A DNA stretch of 36,816 nucleotides. Source: a virus (lineage: Duplodnaviria; Heunggongvirae; Uroviricota; Caudoviricetes). Location of the stretch: IMG/VR virus record IMGVR_UViG_2563366829_000018, positions 1-36,816 of that record, one strand, 5' to 3'. The notes below the pieces were generated by a model, which was not told the origin of the DNA, searched no databases, and saw only the letters and a program-made list of their open reading frames with translations. A program made the position numbers and the translations under genes. Position 1 is the first letter of the stretch. Each line of letters begins with the position of its first letter. Shown in pieces: positions 3,298 to 28,785 of this stretch.

Positions 3298-6200
3298 CGT
3301 CCACCTCCGGAGAACAGACCACCATCACGGGACTGCTGTTGCATAAAGTCCGCTGCTGCTTTTTTCCCGAGATCATAAACCACCTTCAGGGCAGCCGGAC
3401 CTATCTGCCCGTTCGTGCCATCGTTATTGATCTCGATGTTGTACTGCGGGGCAAACATCGCCATACCTGAACCACCAATATCCGCCACAACCCCCAGCTT
3501 ACCGTCAGCACCACGACGCAGAGGCAGAATGGCTTCAGGCCCAGCTTCCCCCATCACACCTGCACCTTTTGCAAAAGCAAAAAACGTCGGACGATTAACC
3601 ACCGTGCCACTGTAGCGACTCAAATCAGCAGACTGATAAACACCACCATCAGCATTGGGCGTCACACTGGCAGTTGCTGCACTCCCCCAGCCAAACGCCG
3701 AACCAATCCCCTTAACTGCCTGCATCATGGACATCTGAGCCATGATTTTTGCCAGATCAGAAAGGAGCGAGGCGGTAAAAGATTTGAAGTTCAGTTTTCC
3801 GGTAGTACAGAACGTTGCCAGTGCATTACCTGCACTGTTAAATGCCGCTGTAAGCATCTGCTCAGCAGTGCCTGCCGCATTATCCGCATCTGCCGTGAAA
3901 TTCTGAAACGCCCGCATAGCACCGTTTTTCCAGTTACCCTGAGCAATTTCAAGCTGTTGCCAGTAACGGTGATTCTCATTCAGTTGTCGGTTCAGGCTCT
4001 CCGTCAGCGCCTGCTCGGCCTTTCTGTAGTCATCCGTGTTATATGTCCCTTTCTGCTCACTATCCCGCCTCAACTGCTCCAGCTGTTGCTGGTATTTCTG
4101 GCGAAGACTCAGTTGTACCTGATATCGCTGCCGCTGCTGATCACCCATACCCACCGTGGCGATATCCAGGTCATGTTGCTGACGCTGAGCGCGCTCTTCT
4201 TCAGCCAGTTGACTGGTCAGCTGAATTGTTTTTTTCTTCAGATCGTTGAGTGCCGTCTGTTTCTGAAGCTCCTGCTGTTTTACATCCAGCAGCGTCAGTG
4301 CCTGAATCAGTTCATCTTTACGGGCCAGCACACTCTTTTCATCTGCCGTCAGTTTTTTCCCGTCCAGATCGCTGATGCGCTGCTGCAGAGCCAGAAGCTG
4401 TTTATGCGCTTCTGTCATCCTGTCAGTGGCAATGCCTGCTGACTGTCTTGCAGCAGCAATCTGTCCTTCCACCTGTGCCTGTTGCTGGCTGTACTGCAGC
4501 AATAACCGGGTGGCCTCATCATTACGGGTTTCGCGTGTTTTTTTCTTACCGGATGCCAGGGCTTTCTCGTAACGTTCATTTTCACGTTGTATCGCAGCAT
4601 CCCTGACAGCCTGATCGGCGTACTGCATGGCATTAATACGCGCAATTTCACGCTGATGTCGTGCAGCTTCCGTTTCATTCATCCGGTTCAGTGCAGCATT
4701 TTCAGCATTACGGCGTTTCTGTTGCTCCTGATAATTCCGCTCTGCCTGCTCTTTTGCATCCTGCAAATCCTTCTGGCGTTTTTTCTCCTGAAGATCGTTA
4801 AGACGCTGCTGATCGTATTCAACCTGAGAAGATGATGCCGTCCAGGGGAGTCTTTTCGCCCGCGACACTTTCTCCTGCAAAGTGGCAATCTGCGCATCCA
4901 GCGAATCTTCACGACCAATATTCATGGCCGCATCCCAGAACTGCTTCCACCAGTCAGACAAAGTTTGCAGCGTACTGCCCAGCGCATTGAGGTTATTATC
5001 AATATCCGCAGTACGCCGACCGGTTTCCTCTGCCAGTGCAGACATGGCTATCCGTGCCGCATCACTGGACCGCCCCTGCTCTCCAAGGACGCGTATCTGC
5101 TCAAGCTGAGTGGCAGTAAGAAAATGCAGCTCATTGTCCAGAGACTTCGCGGCATTTACAGGATCATCCTTCAGCCGCTTAAACTGATTTATGGTATCGC
5201 TGACCGACTGGCCAACCGATCGCTCCATCTGTGCGGCAGCTCTCGCCACCATACCGATATCGTTTCCACGAAATGCACCACTCCCCACCACCTGAGCCAG
5301 CGCACCGGCTGCAGCATGTTGCGTGATACCATTCCCGGAAATAGCACGACTGAGCGTCCACAGCTGCCCGGCAGTGACTCCGGCATAATGCCCCGTCAGC
5401 GACAGCTGGCGGTTAAATTCTTCCCCCTCCTTCTGACCGTCATACCAGGCTTTACCCAGGCCATAGACAGCCGCGGCAATACCGCCAATAACCCCGCCAA
5501 GCATCATGCCTTTCGGTGACATCAATGTGTCTATCCACCCGGCACGGTTAGCCAGCGTTATTCCGGATCCCCTCAGCGCACCTAAATTTCCGCGGGCCAG
5601 TTCACCTATCAGAACGCCTATCTCCTGACGGGCCGCTGCACTTTTCAGCCCCAGCGAATGCGTGGCTTTTCCTGCCTGCTCCATTTTGCGGATATACACT
5701 TCTGCAGCACTGCTTACCCCCAGCTGGGCAGCCTTAGCACGAAGCAACTCAGAAGAAGAAAGATTCTGGCGGGTTGCCTGCTCTTTAAGCTGACGGATAA
5801 ACGCCACTTTCTGTCGGGTAGCCTCTTCCTCAGCCTGTGTAAGAACACGGGTTTTCGCAGTAACCTCAGAAATCAGCGCCAGATAATCCTGCTGACCAAT
5901 CCCGCCACTGTTTCTGGCCTGTCGGATCTGCTGCTGAATACGCTGTAATTCCTGCAGCCCCGCACTGGCCTGTTTCACACTGTCAATCTGACGATAAAAC
6001 GCAGCAGCCGCTTTATCCTGAGCCTCCGCCAGAGCCATGGCCTGCGCCTGTTCCTCGCGCATTTTCTGGCTCAGTGCCTCCATGCGCTGGCGGGTTTTCT
6101 CCACCTCACGGGCCATGCGTTCATGAGCCTGTGCGTTCTTCTCCACCGTCTGCGCATGAACGGATGCGGCTGTTGCAGCCGAAGAAGCCGCCTGCGTTGT

Positions 6201-23132: not shown

Positions 23133-23528
23133 TTACCGAGTTGCTAATTTGCAACTCGCTTTTTCGTACTTACTGATAGTGATCTCGACCTTCCCCTCCG
23201 GGATAACCGGTCCCCACTCCACCAGCATTCTTTTCACCTGACTGTCGTCTTCCCACACACCCGCGTGGGTCAGGGCGTCAAACAGCGCCTTGTTATAGTT
23301 GTCCAGATCGCGGATCCGGTTATCCGGAGGAAACAACACGATCTCCACTGAAGCAGGTGCCGACGTTGGTTTCGGCAGACGACGTAACTGCTCAACTATT
23401 GCTGCACACGCCGCGCTCTGGAATTTTCGCCCCGCCGCGCTTATCAGGCTCTTACCAGCAAACGCCCCTTTGTTGGGGTGTCGCCAGTACGTGTTCACGC
23501 TGGGCGGAAAAGGCAGTATTAGCTTCAT
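23133..23528 (-). CDS. rusA: Holliday junction resolvase RusA
   Basis: RDLDNYNKALFDALTHAGVWEDDSQV matches the RusA catalytic core (RRRDLDN...FDAL). Confidence 0.85.
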   Translation of the reverse strand: MKLILPFPPSVNTYWRHPNKGAFAGKSLISAAGRKFQSAACAAIVEQLRRLPKPTSAPASVEIVLFPPDNRIRDLDNYNKALFDALTHAGVWEDDSQVKRMLVEWGPVIPEGKVEITISKYEKASCKLATR

Positions 23529-23851
23529 ACTTTCAGGCCCCTCTCATGTAACCAGTGGGTTGCACGCAGCCTTGCGTTTTCCTCACCGGCAAGCAGTGCG
23601 CGGATAATCCCGACCGCCTCGCTGTCGTCGTCCTTCATCGCAGTATGAAGCGTTATCCCCCGGGCCACGCCACGCTTTATCGTGATGACGCCTTTTTTCT
23701 CCAGTGCGCGAAGATGCTCCACCGCTGCATTCACCGAACGGTATCCCAGCATGGTTGCCACCTCCTGATTGGTTGGCGGGAAGCCACGTTCTTTCTGATA
23801 AGAAATCAGCATATCCAGCACCTGCTGCTGGCATTGAGTTAACGTCGTCAT
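23525..23851 (-). CDS. LexA N-terminal DNA-binding-domain protein without a peptidase domain
   Basis: LTQCQQQVLDMLISYQKERGFPPTNQEVATMLGYRSVNAAVEHLRALEKKGVI parallels the LexA winged-HTH; only 108 aa. Confidence 0.65.
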   Translation of the reverse strand: MTTLTQCQQQVLDMLISYQKERGFPPTNQEVATMLGYRSVNAAVEHLRALEKKGVITIKRGVARGITLHTAMKDDDSEAVGIIRALLAGEENARLRATHWLHERGLKV

Positions 23852-24501
23852 GCCGCCATCTCCCTGACCAGTTTTTCCGCCTGCTGGCGAACCTGCGCCA
23901 GAAACGCCTCACCACATGCCTCAAGTTCATCGCGCCCTATGTAGCTGATTGCCGGTCCCTTCCAGGTCTTGTCGAAAACAGCAATAGCACCAGCGAAGAA
24001 AGCACCTGTTGGCACCTGCTTTTCGTCTTTCGGGATAAACCAGGCAGGCAGTTCAAAACCAATACGCCCGCGAATAAAAGCAATATGATCTGCATCTTCC
24101 GGCCACCACACTTCGCTGGTGGCAGCTTTGATCAGGAAAACATAGCGCCCGCCTTTATCACGCATGGCACTGGCATGTTTCATGATGTAACGCATGCCGG
24201 TGATGTATTGCCCCTCATGCTGACTGGCGCGGCTGTACGGGGGATTACCAAAGGCAGCACCTTTAAGCTCCGCAAGACGTTCAGACCAGTCATGCGCCAG
24301 CGCGTTGTCTTCCGCAGTGTAATACGCAGCACATTTGGCGTTATCACCGTCAGTGAACAGATCCAGAACAAACGGGCCAAACAGGGTGTTAATTCCCCAG
24401 AAAATGTTGTCCGGCGTGCGCCACTGATCGCCCACTTCCTTCAGTTCATGGGCTGGTTTGTTCCGCAGTTCCACCAGCGCCTGGCAATATTTATTACTCA
24501 T
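23848..24501 (-). CDS. Phage DNA N6-adenine methyltransferase (Dam-like), orphan
   Basis: NPPY catalytic motif (FGNPPYSRAS); no adjacent restriction gene; start set at MSNKYCQ. Confidence 0.8.
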   Translation of the reverse strand: MSNKYCQALVELRNKPAHELKEVGDQWRTPDNIFWGINTLFGPFVLDLFTDGDNAKCAAYYTAEDNALAHDWSERLAELKGAAFGNPPYSRASQHEGQYITGMRYIMKHASAMRDKGGRYVFLIKAATSEVWWPEDADHIAFIRGRIGFELPAWFIPKDEKQVPTGAFFAGAIAVFDKTWKGPAISYIGRDELEACGEAFLAQVRQQAEKLVREMAA

Positions 24502-24995
24502 TAAGCCCCCACGAAATTCCCTGACAGATACCACTCTTCACCCGATGCAGCGCGCTTGCTGCTTTTCCGTAAGCACCGCTCACGACGTGCCAGAAAATTG
24601 TTTCGTTCTGGCTGGGAGTGGCTTTCACGGAATGCCGCCATCCACACCGTTGCAGCACGACGGTATAAGCCCCTGGACTCCAGTTCTTCAGCCTGGCGGG
24701 TCAGGCACAAAATCACACGGGGATCGTTAGTGCCGACATAGAAATTGCGCACAGGTCTGGTTTCACGAACTGGTTGTGGTTCCGGATCCTGCGCTCTCTC
24801 AGTCAGGCGTGGGAAATGTCTGCGTGTATCTCCTTCACAACGGTGAGCCACACGCCCACTCTGACGTAACTTGCTTGCTGACTGCAGAACGCGCTGCCGT
24901 GAGTAACCAGCAAAAGCATCCGCAATGTCTCCGGAAGTACAGCCCGGATGGGCTTCAATGAATTTCTGAACTTCATTCAAAAGACTCATGATCAC
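24501..24995 (-). CDS. Hypothetical protein with a PerC-like C-terminal region
   Basis: LESRGLYRRAATVWMAAF resembles the PerC/Pch signature (GLWRRAA..W); ATGA coupling with the upstream gene. Confidence 0.45.
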   Translation of the reverse strand: MIMSLLNEVQKFIEAHPGCTSGDIADAFAGYSRQRVLQSASKLRQSGRVAHRCEGDTRRHFPRLTERAQDPEPQPVRETRPVRNFYVGTNDPRVILCLTRQAEELESRGLYRRAATVWMAAFRESHSQPERNNFLARRERCLRKSSKRAASGEEWYLSGNFVGA

Positions 24996-25810
24996 CCCCT
25001 GAATCCTTCCGGGATCTGGCTGTAGTCCACGTTGTCGTAACTGGCTTTGAAGTACGGGTCCTCGCGTCTGACTGCAGATACCGCAGGAACTTCCCAGGAT
25101 TCTTCGAAATGACGATCCGGGCCAAAGAACGTGACAGCCTGTTTCACAAATTGTGTGCCGCTGTTACCCATCGCAGATACCCAGCCCGCGTAGCGTTTCA
25201 CACCTTCCAGCATGGTTTCGGGGTTTACCCCCTCATTCAAACGGGCTTTCCAGGCTTTGAAGGCTGCAGATTTTGAATTGCCACCAGCACGTTTTGGATA
25301 GGCCAGCCATGCCTGCTCAAACTCCGGAGAGTATTCCGGTCGGTTTGAACGAACTCGCACAGACTCATCAGCAGATGCACCAACAGCTATTGGTTCATTG
25401 ACTGGTTCTTTGACTGGTTCAAAAGAGTGACTGGTTCTGGGTGAATCTCCTGCACTACCCCCTGGTGCAACTCCTGCACTACCTGGTGAATTTGCTGCAC
25501 CAGATAGTGAATTATTTGCACTACCCCCTAGTGAATCTCCTGCACCATCAAGATGAAGGAGATAGATATTACTTGAGTTACCTTTTTCACCTTTCCGGGT
25601 GACTTTTTTTACCAGCCCGGACTCACAAAGGGCCGCAATATGATTCATCACAGAACGTTTGCTAATCTCGCACTGGTCAGCAATATGCTGGTAGCTGGGC
25701 CAGCACTCACCCTGATCGCTGGCATTATCAGCCAGCTTAATCAGAACCAGTTTTCGCAATGGATTTCCCACTCGAATTTTCATCGCTTTAACCATCAACT
25801 CCATACTCAT
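24992..25810 (-). CDS. Replication initiator (O-like, N-terminal winged HTH) with a repetitive linker encoded by iterons
   Basis: N-terminal HTH (SYQHIADQCEISKRSVMNHIAALCESGLV); Gly/Ser/Ala-rich repeat region coinciding with DNA direct repeats. Confidence 0.6.
   Translation of the reverse strand: MSMELMVKAMKIRVGNPLRKLVLIKLADNASDQGECWPSYQHIADQCEISKRSVMNHIAALCESGLVKKVTRKGEKGNSSNIYLLHLDGAGDSLGGSANNSLSGAANSPGSAGVAPGGSAGDSPRTSHSFEPVKEPVNEPIAVGASADESVRVRSNRPEYSPEFEQAWLAYPKRAGGNSKSAAFKAWKARLNEGVNPETMLEGVKRYAGWVSAMGNSGTQFVKQAVTFFGPDRHFEESWEVPAVSAVRREDPYFKASYDNVDYSQIPEGFRG
25390..25550. repeat. Candidate replication origin iterons inside the O-like gene
   Basis: Three copies of TGACTGGTTC (25399-25438), two exact copies of GTGAATCTCCTGCAC (25441 and 25531), repeated TGCACTACC units. 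Confidence 0.55.
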
Positions 25811-26031
25811 GCAGCACCTCCGAGATGCTTCATGTTTTTTCCGGAGCGAAAGGCTATAAGCGGCATACTGACGCGGTAATTACGGCCCAGCGGTTCACAA
25901 ATCACCTTCTGACATTCACGGTCAACCAGGCTAACACGTAGAACATGCCCTGCAGGCGTGGTGTACCACTGACCCGGACGAGGACAACGGAAAGTATGAT
26001 TGGTAAACCGTTTGAAAATATTCCGGATCAT
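25807..26031 (-). CDS. Hypothetical small protein (74 aa)
   Basis: ORF translationally coupled to the O-like gene; no recognisable domain. Confidence 0.3.
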   Translation of the reverse strand: MIRNIFKRFTNHTFRCPRPGQWYTTPAGHVLRVSLVDRECQKVICEPLGRNYRVSMPLIAFRSGKNMKHLGGAA

Positions 26032-27188
26032 TTACGCCCCCTTACCTCTGAAGGGTTCAGCGACAAATTTATGAGACTGGCCAGTAGCGCCGCGTCGTTG
26101 ATGCGGTCATACAGACTTACAGCCAGCGGGGATTCGGCTTTTGCCAACATGGGATAAAGCTGCTGCAGCCAGACCTTGTGGATTACCGACAGGTGGGAGT
26201 AAAGCACGCTGGCGTTATCTGCGGCATCGCTCAGCGTGGATGGCTTTGAAAGCAGTTTTTCCATCTGGTTAAAGGCATTGATGTATGCCTCTTTGAACCG
26301 GGCAGCACGTTTACCCGTGAAACCCATAGCAAGAAACGCAAAACCGTCTCGTGTGATTTGATAGCAAAGGAGCTTGCGTGTACCACCGTTCGGTTGATTT
26401 ACCGAAATCGATGTCTCCGCAAAATTGCGGGCACAAAACTCAGGGGAACAATCCAGAGTGCGGATCTTTTTCAGCACATCGTCGTGACGCTTGGAGAAGA
26501 AGTTGGCAACAGCCAAAGAAGTGGTAACGGCCTGGCCGTTGTCAATGGTGATTTCAGGTTGAGTGAGGGCTGGGATCGTAGCCATGATGGCAGCCTCCGT
26601 TGACAGTGAAAAACTTCCACCACCGGAAACGCCAATTTCACTGGTGGTGAACTGGACGGGGTTGGCGTAACCGGCGTCAACGGAGACCGGCGCACCTTTC
26701 GGTGCCCCCGCCCAGCCCACCATAATCTGGATGTGAGCAAATGCGGACGATAAAAAAGACGCTGGCGCGTCATACATCGCCGTTGACAATTTCAGGACGC
26801 CAATCCCGGCACCCGCTTTATAAGGTGCCTGAACAGTGTAACGTCCCGGAATTGCAGAATCAATATGCTGGTGGTCCTTCACACTCAACAAAATCACGCC
26901 TGAATTTCCACAAAGGACTAAAGCACTCATGCGGGTAGTCTTTGCGAAGATAGATAACGCGCTGTGTTTCTGGCTCCCAACGAATAACATGGACATAAAG
27001 CCCTCTTCCGTCACGAAACCAGCGGTTAAGTTCCTGCACAACTCGCCCCCCACAGTCAGGTAAAGTTCTCTGTGGTTACTTACAGCCAGGTGATTTGGTA
27101 ATCTGCATTCATGCCGTAACAACAGGTGTTCAGCGACGCTGACCACCAGCTGTTGCGACAAACGGTTATTTGCCGTTAAACTATTCAT
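26028..27188 (-). CDS. Rha-family phage regulatory protein with a ~200-aa N-terminal extension
   Basis: Rha-like core (ITIDNGQAVTTSLAVANFFSKRHDDVLKKIRTL) at residues ~210-300; ATGA coupling with the CII-like gene supports the long form; an alternative start at 26585 has a GGAGG RBS. Confidence 0.55.
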   Translation of the reverse strand: MNSLTANNRLSQQLVVSVAEHLLLRHECRLPNHLAVSNHRELYLTVGGELCRNLTAGFVTEEGFMSMLFVGSQKHSALSIFAKTTRMSALVLCGNSGVILLSVKDHQHIDSAIPGRYTVQAPYKAGAGIGVLKLSTAMYDAPASFLSSAFAHIQIMVGWAGAPKGAPVSVDAGYANPVQFTTSEIGVSGGGSFSLSTEAAIMATIPALTQPEITIDNGQAVTTSLAVANFFSKRHDDVLKKIRTLDCSPEFCARNFAETSISVNQPNGGTRKLLCYQITRDGFAFLAMGFTGKRAARFKEAYINAFNQMEKLLSKPSTLSDAADNASVLYSHLSVIHKVWLQQLYPMLAKAESPLAVSLYDRINDAALLASLINLSLNPSEVRGRK

Positions 27189-27742
27189 GCGTTAGTTTCT
27201 CCACAACCAGAAGCAATCGACGCCACGACGCCCGGAGCTGCACACTCGCGGGCGTTACTCTTTTCTGGAGCGCAGAAGATTTTGTAGACCAGTGCTGCAT
27301 GCTCCTGGAGCTTCGAAATTGAAAGATACAGTTCGTCGTTAATTGCTGTCTTCTCATGCGGTTCCACTACACCGTCTTCGATTGCTGAACGAATCTGTCT
27401 GGAATAACTGCCGATCTGTTCAATGACTTCCAGCAGGCGCTGGTTTATATCGGCGTTCTCTACTGCCTCAATTTCAGGAAGCGATACGAACACCCCACCA
27501 GCAGACTGTGCGACAGCATCCGCAATGTAGTGAGTGCCAGCCGCACGCTGTAAAACCATTGCCCATCCCAGCGGGAAAATCTGATCGCCATCTGCACGAA
27601 GGCGGTTGAATAATGCGTTCTCTGTTACATCCAGCCACTCAGCAGCTTCAGCGTAACCCCCCGGCAACGCCGCGATAGTTTTTCTGACAGCTTTCACGTA
27701 CCACTCAGGCTGTTTTTCCACTTTCCAGTGATGATTACCCAC
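27185..27742 (-). CDS. Putative CII-like regulatory protein
   Basis: Position immediately downstream of cro; assignment is by position and weak resemblance only. Confidence 0.4.
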   Translation of the reverse strand: MGNHHWKVEKQPEWYVKAVRKTIAALPGGYAEAAEWLDVTENALFNRLRADGDQIFPLGWAMVLQRAAGTHYIADAVAQSAGGVFVSLPEIEAVENADINQRLLEVIEQIGSYSRQIRSAIEDGVVEPHEKTAINDELYLSISKLQEHAALVYKIFCAPEKSNARECAAPGVVASIASGCGETNA

Positions 27743-27995
27743 GGCTTACCTCCTGTTCCTGTGGTTTAAACCCATTCTGGTTTTGGCTAGATTGAAAACG
27801 TGCCGGATAAAGAATCTGCATTTCGCTGATTTCACCCTTAAAAAAATTGGCCAGACGTTCTGCAAGATCGATAGATGGAATTTGTTCCAGTCTTTCAATA
27901 CGACTCAGCGTCGCTGGATTGACCTGAACGCCCGCAGCAACATGCTGCAAAGTAAATCCGTGCGCCTTACGCACATTCCGTAATGGTGATTGCAT
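27735..27995 (-). CDS. cro: Cro-like repressor (XRE-family HTH)
   Basis: HTH (HGFTLQHVAAGVQVNPATLSRIE); divergent from cI; GGAGG RBS. Confidence 0.8.
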   Translation of the reverse strand: MQSPLRNVRKAHGFTLQHVAAGVQVNPATLSRIERLEQIPSIDLAERLANFFKGEISEMQILYPARFQSSQNQNGFKPQEQEVSRG

Positions 27996-28092
27996 ATAAC
28001 CTCCACATATTGCGTGATGAGCATATTATTTCACGCAAATATTTTGCGCAAGTTGATTTGCTTAACGCGCAATAAAGAAATGTAATAAACGC
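27996..28092. promoter_or_regulatory. Right operator / divergent promoter region between cro and cI
   Basis: Repeated palindromic half-sites (TTGCGTGA...TCACGCAA, CGCAAATATTTTGCG, TTGCGCAA) in the 97-bp cI-cro intergenic region. Confidence 0.6.
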
Positions 28093-28785
28093 ATGAACAT
28101 AGGAAACCGAGTCAGACAACTTCGCCAGGCGAAGAACATGAAAATCGCCGATCTCGCTGAAGCAATAGGAGTGGATGCGGCGAATATCTCACGCCTGGAA
28201 ACAGGTAAGCAGAAACAATTCACTGAACAAGCCCTGAGTAATATTGCCAGGAGCTTAGGTGTTGATATCGCTGATCTCTTTACCTCAGACGTCAAAAGTA
28301 ATACTGTATGTAAAAACAGTATTGGTGAGGATGTTGCGCAGGTGAAGGATGTATTCCGTATTGAAATGCTGGATGTCAGTGCCAGTGCGGGAAATGGCCT
28401 TATCCAGGGCGGTGATGTCATTGATGTGATTCATGCCATTGAATACAGAACTGATAATGCTGTATCGATGTTTGGCGGACGGCCAGCCAATCACATTAAA
28501 GTTATCAACGTTCGTGGGGACAGTATGTGTCCAACCATTGAGCCAGGAGATCTCATCTTCGTTGATATCAGTATCAATCAGTTTGATGGGGATGGTATAT
28601 ATGTATTTGGTTTTGATGATAAAATTTACGTCAAACGACTGCAAATGATACCTGATAAACTGCTGGTAATTTCTGATAATCAGATTTACCGCGAATGGGG
28701 AATTACCAGCGAAAACGAACATCGGTTTATGGTCTTTGGAAAGGTCTTAATCAGTCAGTCACAAACCCTTAAGCGACACAATTAA
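28093..28785 (+). CDS. cI: CI-type prophage repressor (XRE HTH plus S24 LexA-like autopeptidase domain)
   Basis: N-terminal HTH; C-terminal S24-like domain (VRGDSMCPTIEPGDLIFVD ... KIYVKRL); no Shine-Dalgarno sequence upstream of the ATG. Confidence 0.9.
   Translation: MNIGNRVRQLRQAKNMKIADLAEAIGVDAANISRLETGKQKQFTEQALSNIARSLGVDIADLFTSDVKSNTVCKNSIGEDVAQVKDVFRIEMLDVSASAGNGLIQGGDVIDVIHAIEYRTDNAVSMFGGRPANHIKVINVRGDSMCPTIEPGDLIFVDISINQFDGDGIYVFGFDDKIYVKRLQMIPDKLLVISDNQIYREWGITSENEHRFMVFGKVLISQSQTLKRHN

Follow-up and report, generated by a model that had tools for sequence, protein, structure and literature searches.

Within a stretch of 36,816 nucleotides from a virus of the Caudoviricetes (IMG/VR record IMGVR_UViG_2563366829_000018, positions 1–36,816), here called the window, a gene at 24992–25810 on the minus strand encodes a replication initiator of 272 amino acids, identified from the open reading frame (ORF) listing, Pfam, PHROG and an AlphaFold2 model. 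We propose that a segment of about 160 bp inside this gene, at 25390–25550, is the replication origin of a lambdoid prophage, and we give this reading a probability of about 0.8. The segment codes for the linker of the initiator and holds an iteron array and a conserved block of low GC content. An initial annotation of the window had described direct repeats in the coding sequence at these positions and compared them with the origin inside lambda gene O. The repeats are present, and the comparative evidence, the conservation at synonymous sites and the covariation with the recognition helix of the protein all support the view that they are origin iterons within the initiator gene.

Iterons within the initiator gene

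The initiator consists of an N-terminal winged helix, a disordered linker and a helical C-terminal domain, in that order. The array occupies codons 88–124 of the 272, between the winged helix and the C-terminal domain, where the AlphaFold2 model has a predicted local distance difference test (pLDDT) score of 31–36. It is made of five cores of 15 nt, at 25441–25455, 25465–25479, 25486–25500, 25507–25521 and 25531–25545, which are spaced 24, 21, 21 and 24 nt apart. On the gene strand the core reads GTGCA-N5-T(G/T)CAC, and the longer 19-nt form is RTRGTGCAnnnnnTKCACY. Iteron 1 (ATGGTGCAGGAGATTCACT, 25530–25548, minus strand, as are all five) is farthest from the block and is followed by iteron 2 (GTAGTGCAAATAATTCACT, 25506–25524), iteron 3 (CTGGTGCAGCAAATTCACC, 25485–25503), iteron 4 (GTAGTGCAGGAGTTGCACC, 25464–25482) and iteron 5 (GTAGTGCAGGAGATTCACC, 25440–25458), which abuts the block. 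Iteron 4 is a perfect GTGCA/TGCAC dyad and matches the pattern on both strands. Tandem Repeats Finder, a check of the kind that the initial annotation had called for, reports a period of 24 with 4.6 copies and a score of 77. The pattern is found six times in the window, five times in the array and once alone, compared with an expectation of 0.40, and none of 100 dinucleotide shuffles reaches the observed count. No other cluster of the motif is present in the 36.8-kb window. The lone site, a perfect dyad at 3821–3835 (GTGCATTACCTGCAC), is far from the initiator gene; it is within chance (0.4 expected per window) and could be a secondary binding site.

The array encodes a peptide rich in Gly, Ser and Ala, as had been noted initially (residues 89–123, GAGDS LGGSANNS LSGAANS PGSAGVA PGGSAGDS). 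When residues 86–141 were re-coded synonymously 20,000 times with the local codon usage, the iteron pattern occurred at most twice, compared with the observed five, and GAAYCAGTCA, the internal repeat of the block, at most twice, compared with the observed three. Since synonymous re-coding never reaches the observed counts, the DNA repeats are not a by-product of the peptide.

For comparison we used 189 homologs of the gene, which come from Escherichia, Salmonella, Aeromonas, Vibrio, Pseudomonas, Shewanella and further genera. When one genome per species was scanned, 80 loci were found, in Pseudomonas, Enterobacter, Marinomonas, Aeromonas, Shewanella, Vibrio, Xenorhabdus, Erwinia and others, with N-terminal domains 65–86% identical to that of the window, and a scan of viral contigs anchored on the block gave 120 further loci. 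A first scan of viral contigs returned only N-terminal domains 100% identical to that of the window, and thus informs copy number, not diversity. The homologs share a common architecture, in which a winged helix (MSMxLMxKAMxIKVGNPLRKLVLIKLADNAxDxGECWPSYQHIADQCE...) is followed by a zone of direct repeats that varies by subgroup, a near-invariant block, and one of several unrelated C-terminal domains. Conservation in homologs, on which the initial annotation had made its reading depend, was found throughout: every homolog examined has repeats, and these are conserved at synonymous sites. Among the 189 genes the number of units is 1–7, and it is 8 in phage cdtI, which is not part of the set. The spacing of the units is 21–24 nt in 571 of 617 intervals and about double that in the remainder, and the last spacing, before the block, is always 24 nt across the family. 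One unit lies in another reading frame in 67 of the 189 genes, with spacings of 23 and then 22 nt restoring the frame; this unit reads GVVQEIHQG in place of GSAGDS. Many homologs have perfect dyads (GGTGACacagaGTCACC, TAGTGACAaatTGTCACTA, GGTGCAaatgcTGCACC, GGGGCAGgagCTGCCCC and CTGTAGGCccacGCCTACAG). Near-identical genes in E. coli have 1, 2, 5 (the common form), 6, 7, 8 or 9 units. The iteron number of lambda-type Stx phages likewise varies, with 4 or 6 (PMC7466680).

The repeat zone of the window has a nucleotide identity of 0.68–0.94 with that of divergent homologs, which is higher than the amino-acid identity of 0.40–0.82, and the same relation holds for the block. Where residues are identical, the codon is also identical in 92–100% of cases in the repeats and block for four of five divergent pairs, and in 77% for the block in the pair with L118; for the repeat zone on its own the range is 93–100%. 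In the flanking N- and C-terminal domains of the same pairs, this figure is only 33–48%. By this comparison of sequences, the repeat units are selected as DNA and not as protein.

The sequence of the iterons varies together with the recognition helix of the winged helix, which is ISKRSVMNHI in the window. For 116 distinct N-terminal domains, a Mantel test of helix distance against iteron distance gives r = 0.70, and it remains at r = 0.60 when the rest of the N-terminal domain is controlled for, a value reached in 0 of 2000 permutations. The reverse partial correlation, of the rest of the N-terminal domain given the helix, is only r = 0.15. The pairs fall into five classes. Helices of the form [KR]RSV[MI]xH go with iterons GTG[CA]A...T[GT]CAC, ..MRH with GTGAC...GTCAC, DRSTVR[KR]H with TGTAGGCC, [SA]KS[AT]VRxH with TATGCCG...GGCAC, and [ASG]RSTVKxH with GGGGC[AG]G...CCC. 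Such covariation is the signature expected for an initiator and its own binding sites.

The winged-helix domain (residues 1–88, 25547–25810, minus strand) was assigned from Pfam, the structure model and fold matches. It belongs to Pfam family HTH_36 (PF13730; residues 17–67, E = 1.8e-11, 44.1 bits with a cut-off of 25), and the protein matches PHROG 270, 'replication initiation protein', with E = 3e-88, together with PHROGs named 'replication initiation O-like'. The AlphaFold2 model has pLDDT scores of 75–88 for residues 1–88, 31–36 for residues 91–165 and 54–63 for the helices of the C-terminal domain, and it predicts disorder for the linker specified by the iterons and the block. A disordered linker would allow the DNA to carry origin signals at little cost to the protein. 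Foldseek with this model gave generic winged-helix matches to the N-terminal domain alone, all with E > 0.001, among them the winged helices of plasmid Rep proteins and DnaD. A search of the whole initiator against the sequences in the PDB gave only noise and no solved relative, and no NCBIfam family covers it.

Other features of the gene were also seen. A terminator-like hairpin (TCACCTTTCCGGGTGA and a T run) is located at 25587–25602 on the plus strand, antisense to the initiator, in the wing-coding part immediately preceding the iterons, and is not shared by Aeromonas phage AsXd-1. Deleted or fused derivatives in E. coli genomes (P0026, P0040 and P0047–P0050) include in-frame fusions of rep with RusA or PerC and a 247-residue form without the last iteron and the entire block. 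They are presumably from decaying prophages.

The low-GC block and the proposed mechanism

The block (CCCAGAACCAGTCACTCTTTTGAACCAGTCAAAGAACCAGTCAATGAACCA) is 51 nt long, at 25391–25441 on the minus strand, and contains three copies of GAACCAGTCA, at 25428–25437, 25411–25420 and 25399–25408, along with a degenerate fourth. The initial annotation had grouped these short repeats with the iterons, but they form a separate element, a low-GC block that is invariant across the family. The window contains three copies compared with an expectation of 0.19. The copies are spaced 17 and 12 nt apart, and because of the 17-nt spacing one copy is in a different reading frame from the other two; one copy encodes PRTSH and the others EPVK or EPVN. 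Of 81 family genes, 75 contain the block, and its frame never differs; its near-invariant sequence is CCCAGAACCAGTCACTCTTTTGAACCAGTCAATGAACC. In the block-anchored sample, this N-terminal domain is in frame upstream of the block in 113 of 114 evaluable loci, and initiators sharing only the C-terminal domain, such as the 'O' of the Stx1a phage, are without it.

The conservation of the block is at the level of DNA. At its 12 codons, a single codon accounts for 99% of the occurrences of the majority residue, compared with 55% for the top codon at 35 invariant residues of the N-terminal domain. Arg is encoded only by the rare AGA, Ser only by AGT or TCT, and Pro only by CCC or CCA; all 12 codons are fixed from Pseudomonas to Vibrio hosts. 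The variants that do occur are nonsynonymous (T/I, H/N, F/L/S and N/K/I), and they are at the same place in each GAAYCAGTCA copy. Furthermore, the block is the GC minimum within ±400 nt (0.37–0.43 over about 50 nt), even in genes with flanks of 0.60–0.69 GC, while the iterons beside it are the GC maximum. We suggest that the block is probably the place of duplex opening and helicase entry.

The block is also a mosaic joint. The class of the C-terminal domain switches directly past it, and in P0067 an N-terminal domain and iterons of the phi24B type are joined at the block to a C-terminal domain of the window type. The DNA similarity of the window to the Stx1a-phage gene begins at 25386, 5 nt past the block. 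These observations would also fit a block conserved mainly as a recombination joint, or for a functional peptide, PRTSHSFEPVNEP, rather than as an unwinding element. We consider this unlikely. Selection for future recombination should be weak, yet 12 of 12 codons are fixed between Pseudomonas and Vibrio. Since the changes that occur are nonsynonymous, the peptide is less constrained than the DNA, and it lies within the region of pLDDT 31–36 (about 35 for the peptide). The internal repeat varies at the same position in each copy, as in a repeated binding or recognition site. A role as a joint is, moreover, compatible with the block being the core of the origin.

The proposed mechanism has three steps. 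In the first, dimers of the N-terminal domain would bind the five dyad iterons (GTGCA-N5-TKCAC), as suggested by the covariation, dyad symmetry and spacing; with roughly two helical turns between units, they should assemble into a nucleoprotein complex resembling the lambda O-some. In the second, strain from this complex would open the adjacent low-GC block, which would then be the counterpart of the AT-rich DNA that lies rightward of the iterons in lambda. The position, composition and DNA-level conservation of the block point to this step. In the third, we infer that the C-terminal domain delivers the replicative helicase.

Several points weigh against this proposal. The literature searched contains no experimental report of binding, unwinding or an origin for the family. 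At about 40% GC over some 50 nt, the block is AT-rich to a moderate degree only; many unwinding elements are much longer and more extreme, and melting alone would not require a sequence so strictly conserved. For the putative helicase-recruitment step, the C-terminal domain has a low-confidence model (pLDDT 54–63), and neither a Pfam family nor a solved relative was found for it. The skew analysis suggested by the initial annotation gave no independent signal for an origin: GC skew changes sign at the divergent cI/cro promoters, where the cumulative skew turns at about 28–29 kb, and it is uninformative because it follows gene orientation.

Autoregulation or copy control is another conceivable function of the sites, in addition to or in place of initiation. 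Were they only an operator or a copy-control ('handcuffing') array, the true origin would be elsewhere. The initiators of iteron plasmids, such as RepE, pi and TrfA, also autorepress or handcuff through their sites, the computed results do not separate initiation from regulation, and the lone dyad site at 3821–3835 might be counted in favor of such a role. However, the array lies 260 nt into the gene rather than at a promoter, and a scan of 24400–28200 for promoters and terminators stayed at chance level and gave no sigma-70-like promoter in the array. The array is always joined to the low-GC block at the fixed distance of 24 nt, the window contains no second cluster of the motif, and the arrangement matches the experimentally proven origin of lambda (PMC7466680). 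A purely regulatory array thus seems quite improbable. That the repeats are simply a low-complexity Gly/Ser/Ala linker changing by replication slippage, with no function as DNA, is scarcely tenable: the segment does encode a predicted disordered linker, and its copy number is polymorphic among near-identical genes, as expected of slippage-prone tandem repeats, but synonymous re-coding never reproduced the pattern, the units are read in two frames as unrelated peptides, nucleotide identity exceeds amino-acid identity with synonymous sites near invariant, the units have dyad symmetry and helical-turn spacing, and their sequence covaries with the recognition helix of the same protein. We therefore keep to an origin within the initiator gene.

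Absence of a helicase loader and proposed helicase recruitment

No P-, DnaC- or DnaB-like gene was found in the window, which is shorter than the whole prophage, with hidden Markov models of the partner families on six-frame ORFs at E ≤ 1, and Pfam detected no helicase or loader among the neighboring genes. This agrees with the initial annotation, which saw no P or DnaC-like loader nearby and took the replication module to be possibly incomplete. Among the 60 annotated genes of the complete cdtI genome (47 kb) there is no helicase, loader or primase. The early-right operon of Ayreon, a phage with E. coli K-12 as its recorded host, is the same and likewise contains neither helicase nor loader, and in Salmonella phage ST64B there are no such genes within the approximately 3 kb inspected downstream. 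Since cdtI and Ayreon are viable relatives with the same initiator and are likewise without helicase or loader, the module appears to be initiator-only rather than broken or incomplete. Given that these genes are missing here and, in the regions inspected, in the three relatives, the initiator would have to recruit the DnaB of the host.

The C-terminal helical domain comprises about residues 158–240 (EFEQAWLAYPKRAGGNSK...GTQFVKQAVTFFGPDRHF; 25091–25339, minus strand) and was delimited from PHROG matches and relatives. It has no Pfam match; it does match PHROG 1701, 'DnaD-like helicase loader', with E = 1e-32, and it presumably recruits a helicase or loader. In most cases the family initiator is followed by a DnaC/IstB-like AAA+ protein (PF01695), usually with a DnaB-like helicase (PF03796) behind it, by a lambda P homologue (PF06992), directly by a DnaB-like helicase, or by an unknown protein of about 250 or about 170 residues. 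The class of the C-terminal domain and that of the partner are largely but not perfectly matched, since class C02 is paired with P-like partners in some genes and DnaC-like partners in others. Among the relatives of the C-terminal domain that have a partner gene, the closest (40–75% identity) are those of AsXd-1, L117, L124, L165, L152 and the Stx1a phage, and all of these partners are DnaC-like. A DnaB-like gene follows the DnaC-like one in AsXd-1, L117, L124, L165 and the Stx1a phage, and none was detected in L152. DnaC of E. coli belongs to the IstB-like family. From this kinship and the DnaC-like partners of the relatives, we infer that host DnaB is probably recruited as the DnaB–DnaC complex, through the C-terminal domain, a C-terminal tail, or both.

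This tail is the last 24 residues (REDPYFKASYDNVDYSQIPEGFRG; 24995–25066, minus strand) and was recognized by DNA identity to the ends of other initiators. Initiators of the solo form end in REDPYFKASYDNVDYSQIPxGFRG, whereas relatives with DnaC and DnaB partners end in ...LPVSGFSEQDYGxSDCNW. The tail is specific to initiators without a helicase gene and with a PerC-like gene after them, and its DNA is 96–97% identical at the ends of otherwise different initiators, SfIV gp41 and those of phages Kati and SKA5. The tail may be a peptide that captures the host helicase, or it may be a mosaic joint only.

In SfIV, the one of these phages inspected (L169, 2501–2576), a PerC-like gene and no helicase gene comes after the tail. 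SfIV gp41 (L169, 2501–3442) has an HTH_36-like N-terminal domain, its own in-gene repeats (TCTGACCCGTCAAAATCTGA...) and a C-terminal domain of the lambda O type (BLASTP E = 1e-25), and no lambda P-like gene follows it. The 'O' of phi24B (L004, 1–2005) is an HTH_36 family member that has GGGGCAGGAGCTGCCCC iterons together with the conserved block, and the 'P' of phi24B is a large Gp4D-type helicase and not a lambda P homologue, so the O/P names in that record are misleading.

We also considered that the initiator-only state might track hosts with DnaC. This was rejected as a clean rule: the enterobacterial L117, L124, L165 and Stx1a phage keep DnaC-like and DnaB-like genes, and the Vibrio phage D67 has neither.

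A more specific reading, which we put forward tentatively and regard as possible rather than probable, joins the roles of block and tail. The block would be at once a sequence-specific origin core, the site of helicase entry and the joint between modules, and the 24-residue tail would capture the host DnaB–DnaC complex. The core would be about 38 nt, AGAAYCAGTCAC-TCTYYT-GAAYCAGTCA-(N2)-GAAYC, in phage initiators of at least 12 gammaproteobacterial genera, and would be recognized, perhaps as single-stranded DNA, by an invariant part of the N-terminal domain or by a conserved replication protein of the host. The helicase would enter there whichever way it is delivered, by lambda P, by DnaC-like and DnaB-like proteins, as DnaB alone or as the host's own, depending on the C-terminal domain attached. 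The block would also join recombining modules for origin specificity and helicase delivery. The role of the tail would be limited to initiator-only phages, with the tail shared with SfIV gp41.

Genomic setting and related systems

The initiator is located in a lambdoid early-right operon, which contains a cro-like gene (27735–27995), a CII/CP76-like gene (27185–27742), a gene for a 386-residue Rha/Ash-domain protein (26028–27188) and a gene for a 74-residue protein of PHROG 1153 with no known function (25807–26031); the cI-like repressor of this region is at 28093–28785 on the plus strand. Since the origin would lie in this rightward operon (cro, cII-like, Rha/Ash, 74-residue gene, rep), any transcription that produces the initiator would pass through it, as in lambda. 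The lambda P position is taken by a PerC/ANR-like regulator (24501–24995, minus strand) and not by a helicase loader, as judged from Pfam (PerC, E = 8e-9), PHROG (1324, 'transcriptional activator') and NCBIfam (ANR family). Past this gene come a Dam methylase, a protein with a LexA DNA-binding domain, and RusA. The Rha/Ash and 74-residue genes sit between the cII-like gene and the initiator, with overlaps that suggest translational coupling. Phages cdtI and Ayreon have both genes, whereas ST64B has the Rha/Ash gene without an annotated counterpart of the conserved 74-residue one. The LexA-type protein (23525–23851, 108 residues), encoded in the nin-like region downstream of Dam, is the DNA-binding domain alone, without an S24 peptidase, and is also found in cdtI, SfIV and Ayreon.

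The initiator gene is 97–100% identical in cdtI, 1720a-02, mEp460, SfV, Ayreon and the Stx2c-converting phages (97–98% in the latter), 88% identical in ST64B and 76% identical in AsXd-1. Parts of the 6-kb region are present in 3383 of 5426 complete E. coli genomes. At E ≤ 1e-5 the initiator family numbers 5,424 proteins.

The closest likeness is to lambda. The lambda record has four 18-bp iterons annotated in codons 117–145 of O, spaced 20, 24 and 23 nt apart, with an AT-rich tract after them in the gene direction, and the lambdoid origin is described as iterons and an AT-rich region in the middle of O (PMC7466680). As in lambda ori and the Stx phages 933W and P27, the proposed origin is mid-gene, between the domains for DNA binding and helicase recruitment. 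It shares with lambda-type origins 4–6 dyad iterons of 18–19 bp, 20–24 bp apart, the tract after them being the local GC minimum in the window but only moderately AT-rich, and with those of lambda-type Stx phages a polymorphic iteron number that adds residues to the protein. The gene is in a pR-type early operon downstream of cro and cII, as in lambda. However, the N-terminal domain is HTH_36 and the iteron sequence is unrelated to that of lambda. The block, with its internal 10-nt repeat, is specific and conserved in sequence, unlike a generic AT-rich tract, and no P gene follows the initiator. Phage_rep_O (PF04492) does not match the initiator at E ≤ 0.01, hhalign of the family N-terminal domain with lambda O gave a probability of 2.6%, which shows no detectable homology, and BLASTP of lambda O matched only C-terminal domains of class C04 (L090, L092 and L142) and SfIV gp41, not the window type. 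Since the proteins are not detectably related, the likeness to lambda is one of mechanism and layout and not of family membership; the term 'O-like' in the initial annotation is right for role and layout and wrong for homology. Some family members precede true lambda P homologues, with up to 44% identity, so the family fills the O slot of O–P modules.

In the gene 18/gene 12 module of P22, which we take to be an O-like initiator with a phage DnaB-like helicase, and in the Eru2 and Eru3 units of Stx phages, the pairing is similar to that in AsXd-1, L117, L124, L165 and Stenotrophomonas phage BUCT709. These combine the N-terminal domain and origin with a DnaB-like helicase, with or without a DnaC-like loader, whereas the window phage has neither. 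Iteron plasmids (RepE of F, pi of R6K, TrfA of RK2 and RepA of pPS10) combine a winged-helix initiator with an array of repeats specific to it, aligned along one helical face, next to which is an unwinding element that itself has short repeats; host DnaB is recruited with no loader from the plasmid. Plasmid iterons are usually asymmetric, bound by monomers and outside the rep gene. In contrast, the units in the window are dyads inside the coding sequence, and no DnaA box is near the initiator gene; the window has two, as many as chance would give. Eru2A is reported to have the Phage_rep_O motif and not HTH_36 (PMC8044961). The Eru6-type 'EHEC phage replication unit' has the same order as the window, with a repressor, a Rha/Ash protein and an HTH_36 protein, and is likened to it here by gene order (PMC8951638). 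The Eru classification covers gene content only, with the replication of Eru phages stated to be unknown and no origin described (PMC8951638). Databases also name the gene DnaD or 'primosomal protein I'. The Pfam DnaD_N model scores 24.3 bits on the winged helix, under its curated cut-off of 27, and PHROG 1701 carries the DnaD name; no DDBH2/DnaB_2 domain match and no solved relative were found by sequence. The names are annotation transfers and not evidence.

A system of this kind is classical and in principle unsurprising, and the invariant block is the new detail. The invariance of the block across genera, the pairing of recognition helix and iteron, and the plugging of one origin module into several helicase-delivery systems appear to be undescribed in the literature searched, although older reviews may cover part of this. 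That search, for HTH_36 with iterons, the origins of ST64B and SfV, and the block sequence, gave nothing relevant; Weigel & Seitz 2006 and the SfV genome paper were outside it.

These results locate, by sequence alone, a likely origin for a very common class of enterobacterial prophages. The same gene is present in Stx2c-converting phages, in the cytolethal-distending-toxin phage cdtI, in serotype-converting phages (SfV) and in Salmonella ST64B, and the literature states that the replication of Stx phages is unknown (PMC8951638). An origin feature should be added when such genes are annotated, and differences in their length should be read as iteron number. The nucleotide-invariant block is a directly testable candidate for the site of unwinding and helicase entry, and the five classes of matched helix and iteron are a natural set for the study of winged-helix specificity. 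The family would also be a clean example of one origin module served by several helicase-delivery systems.

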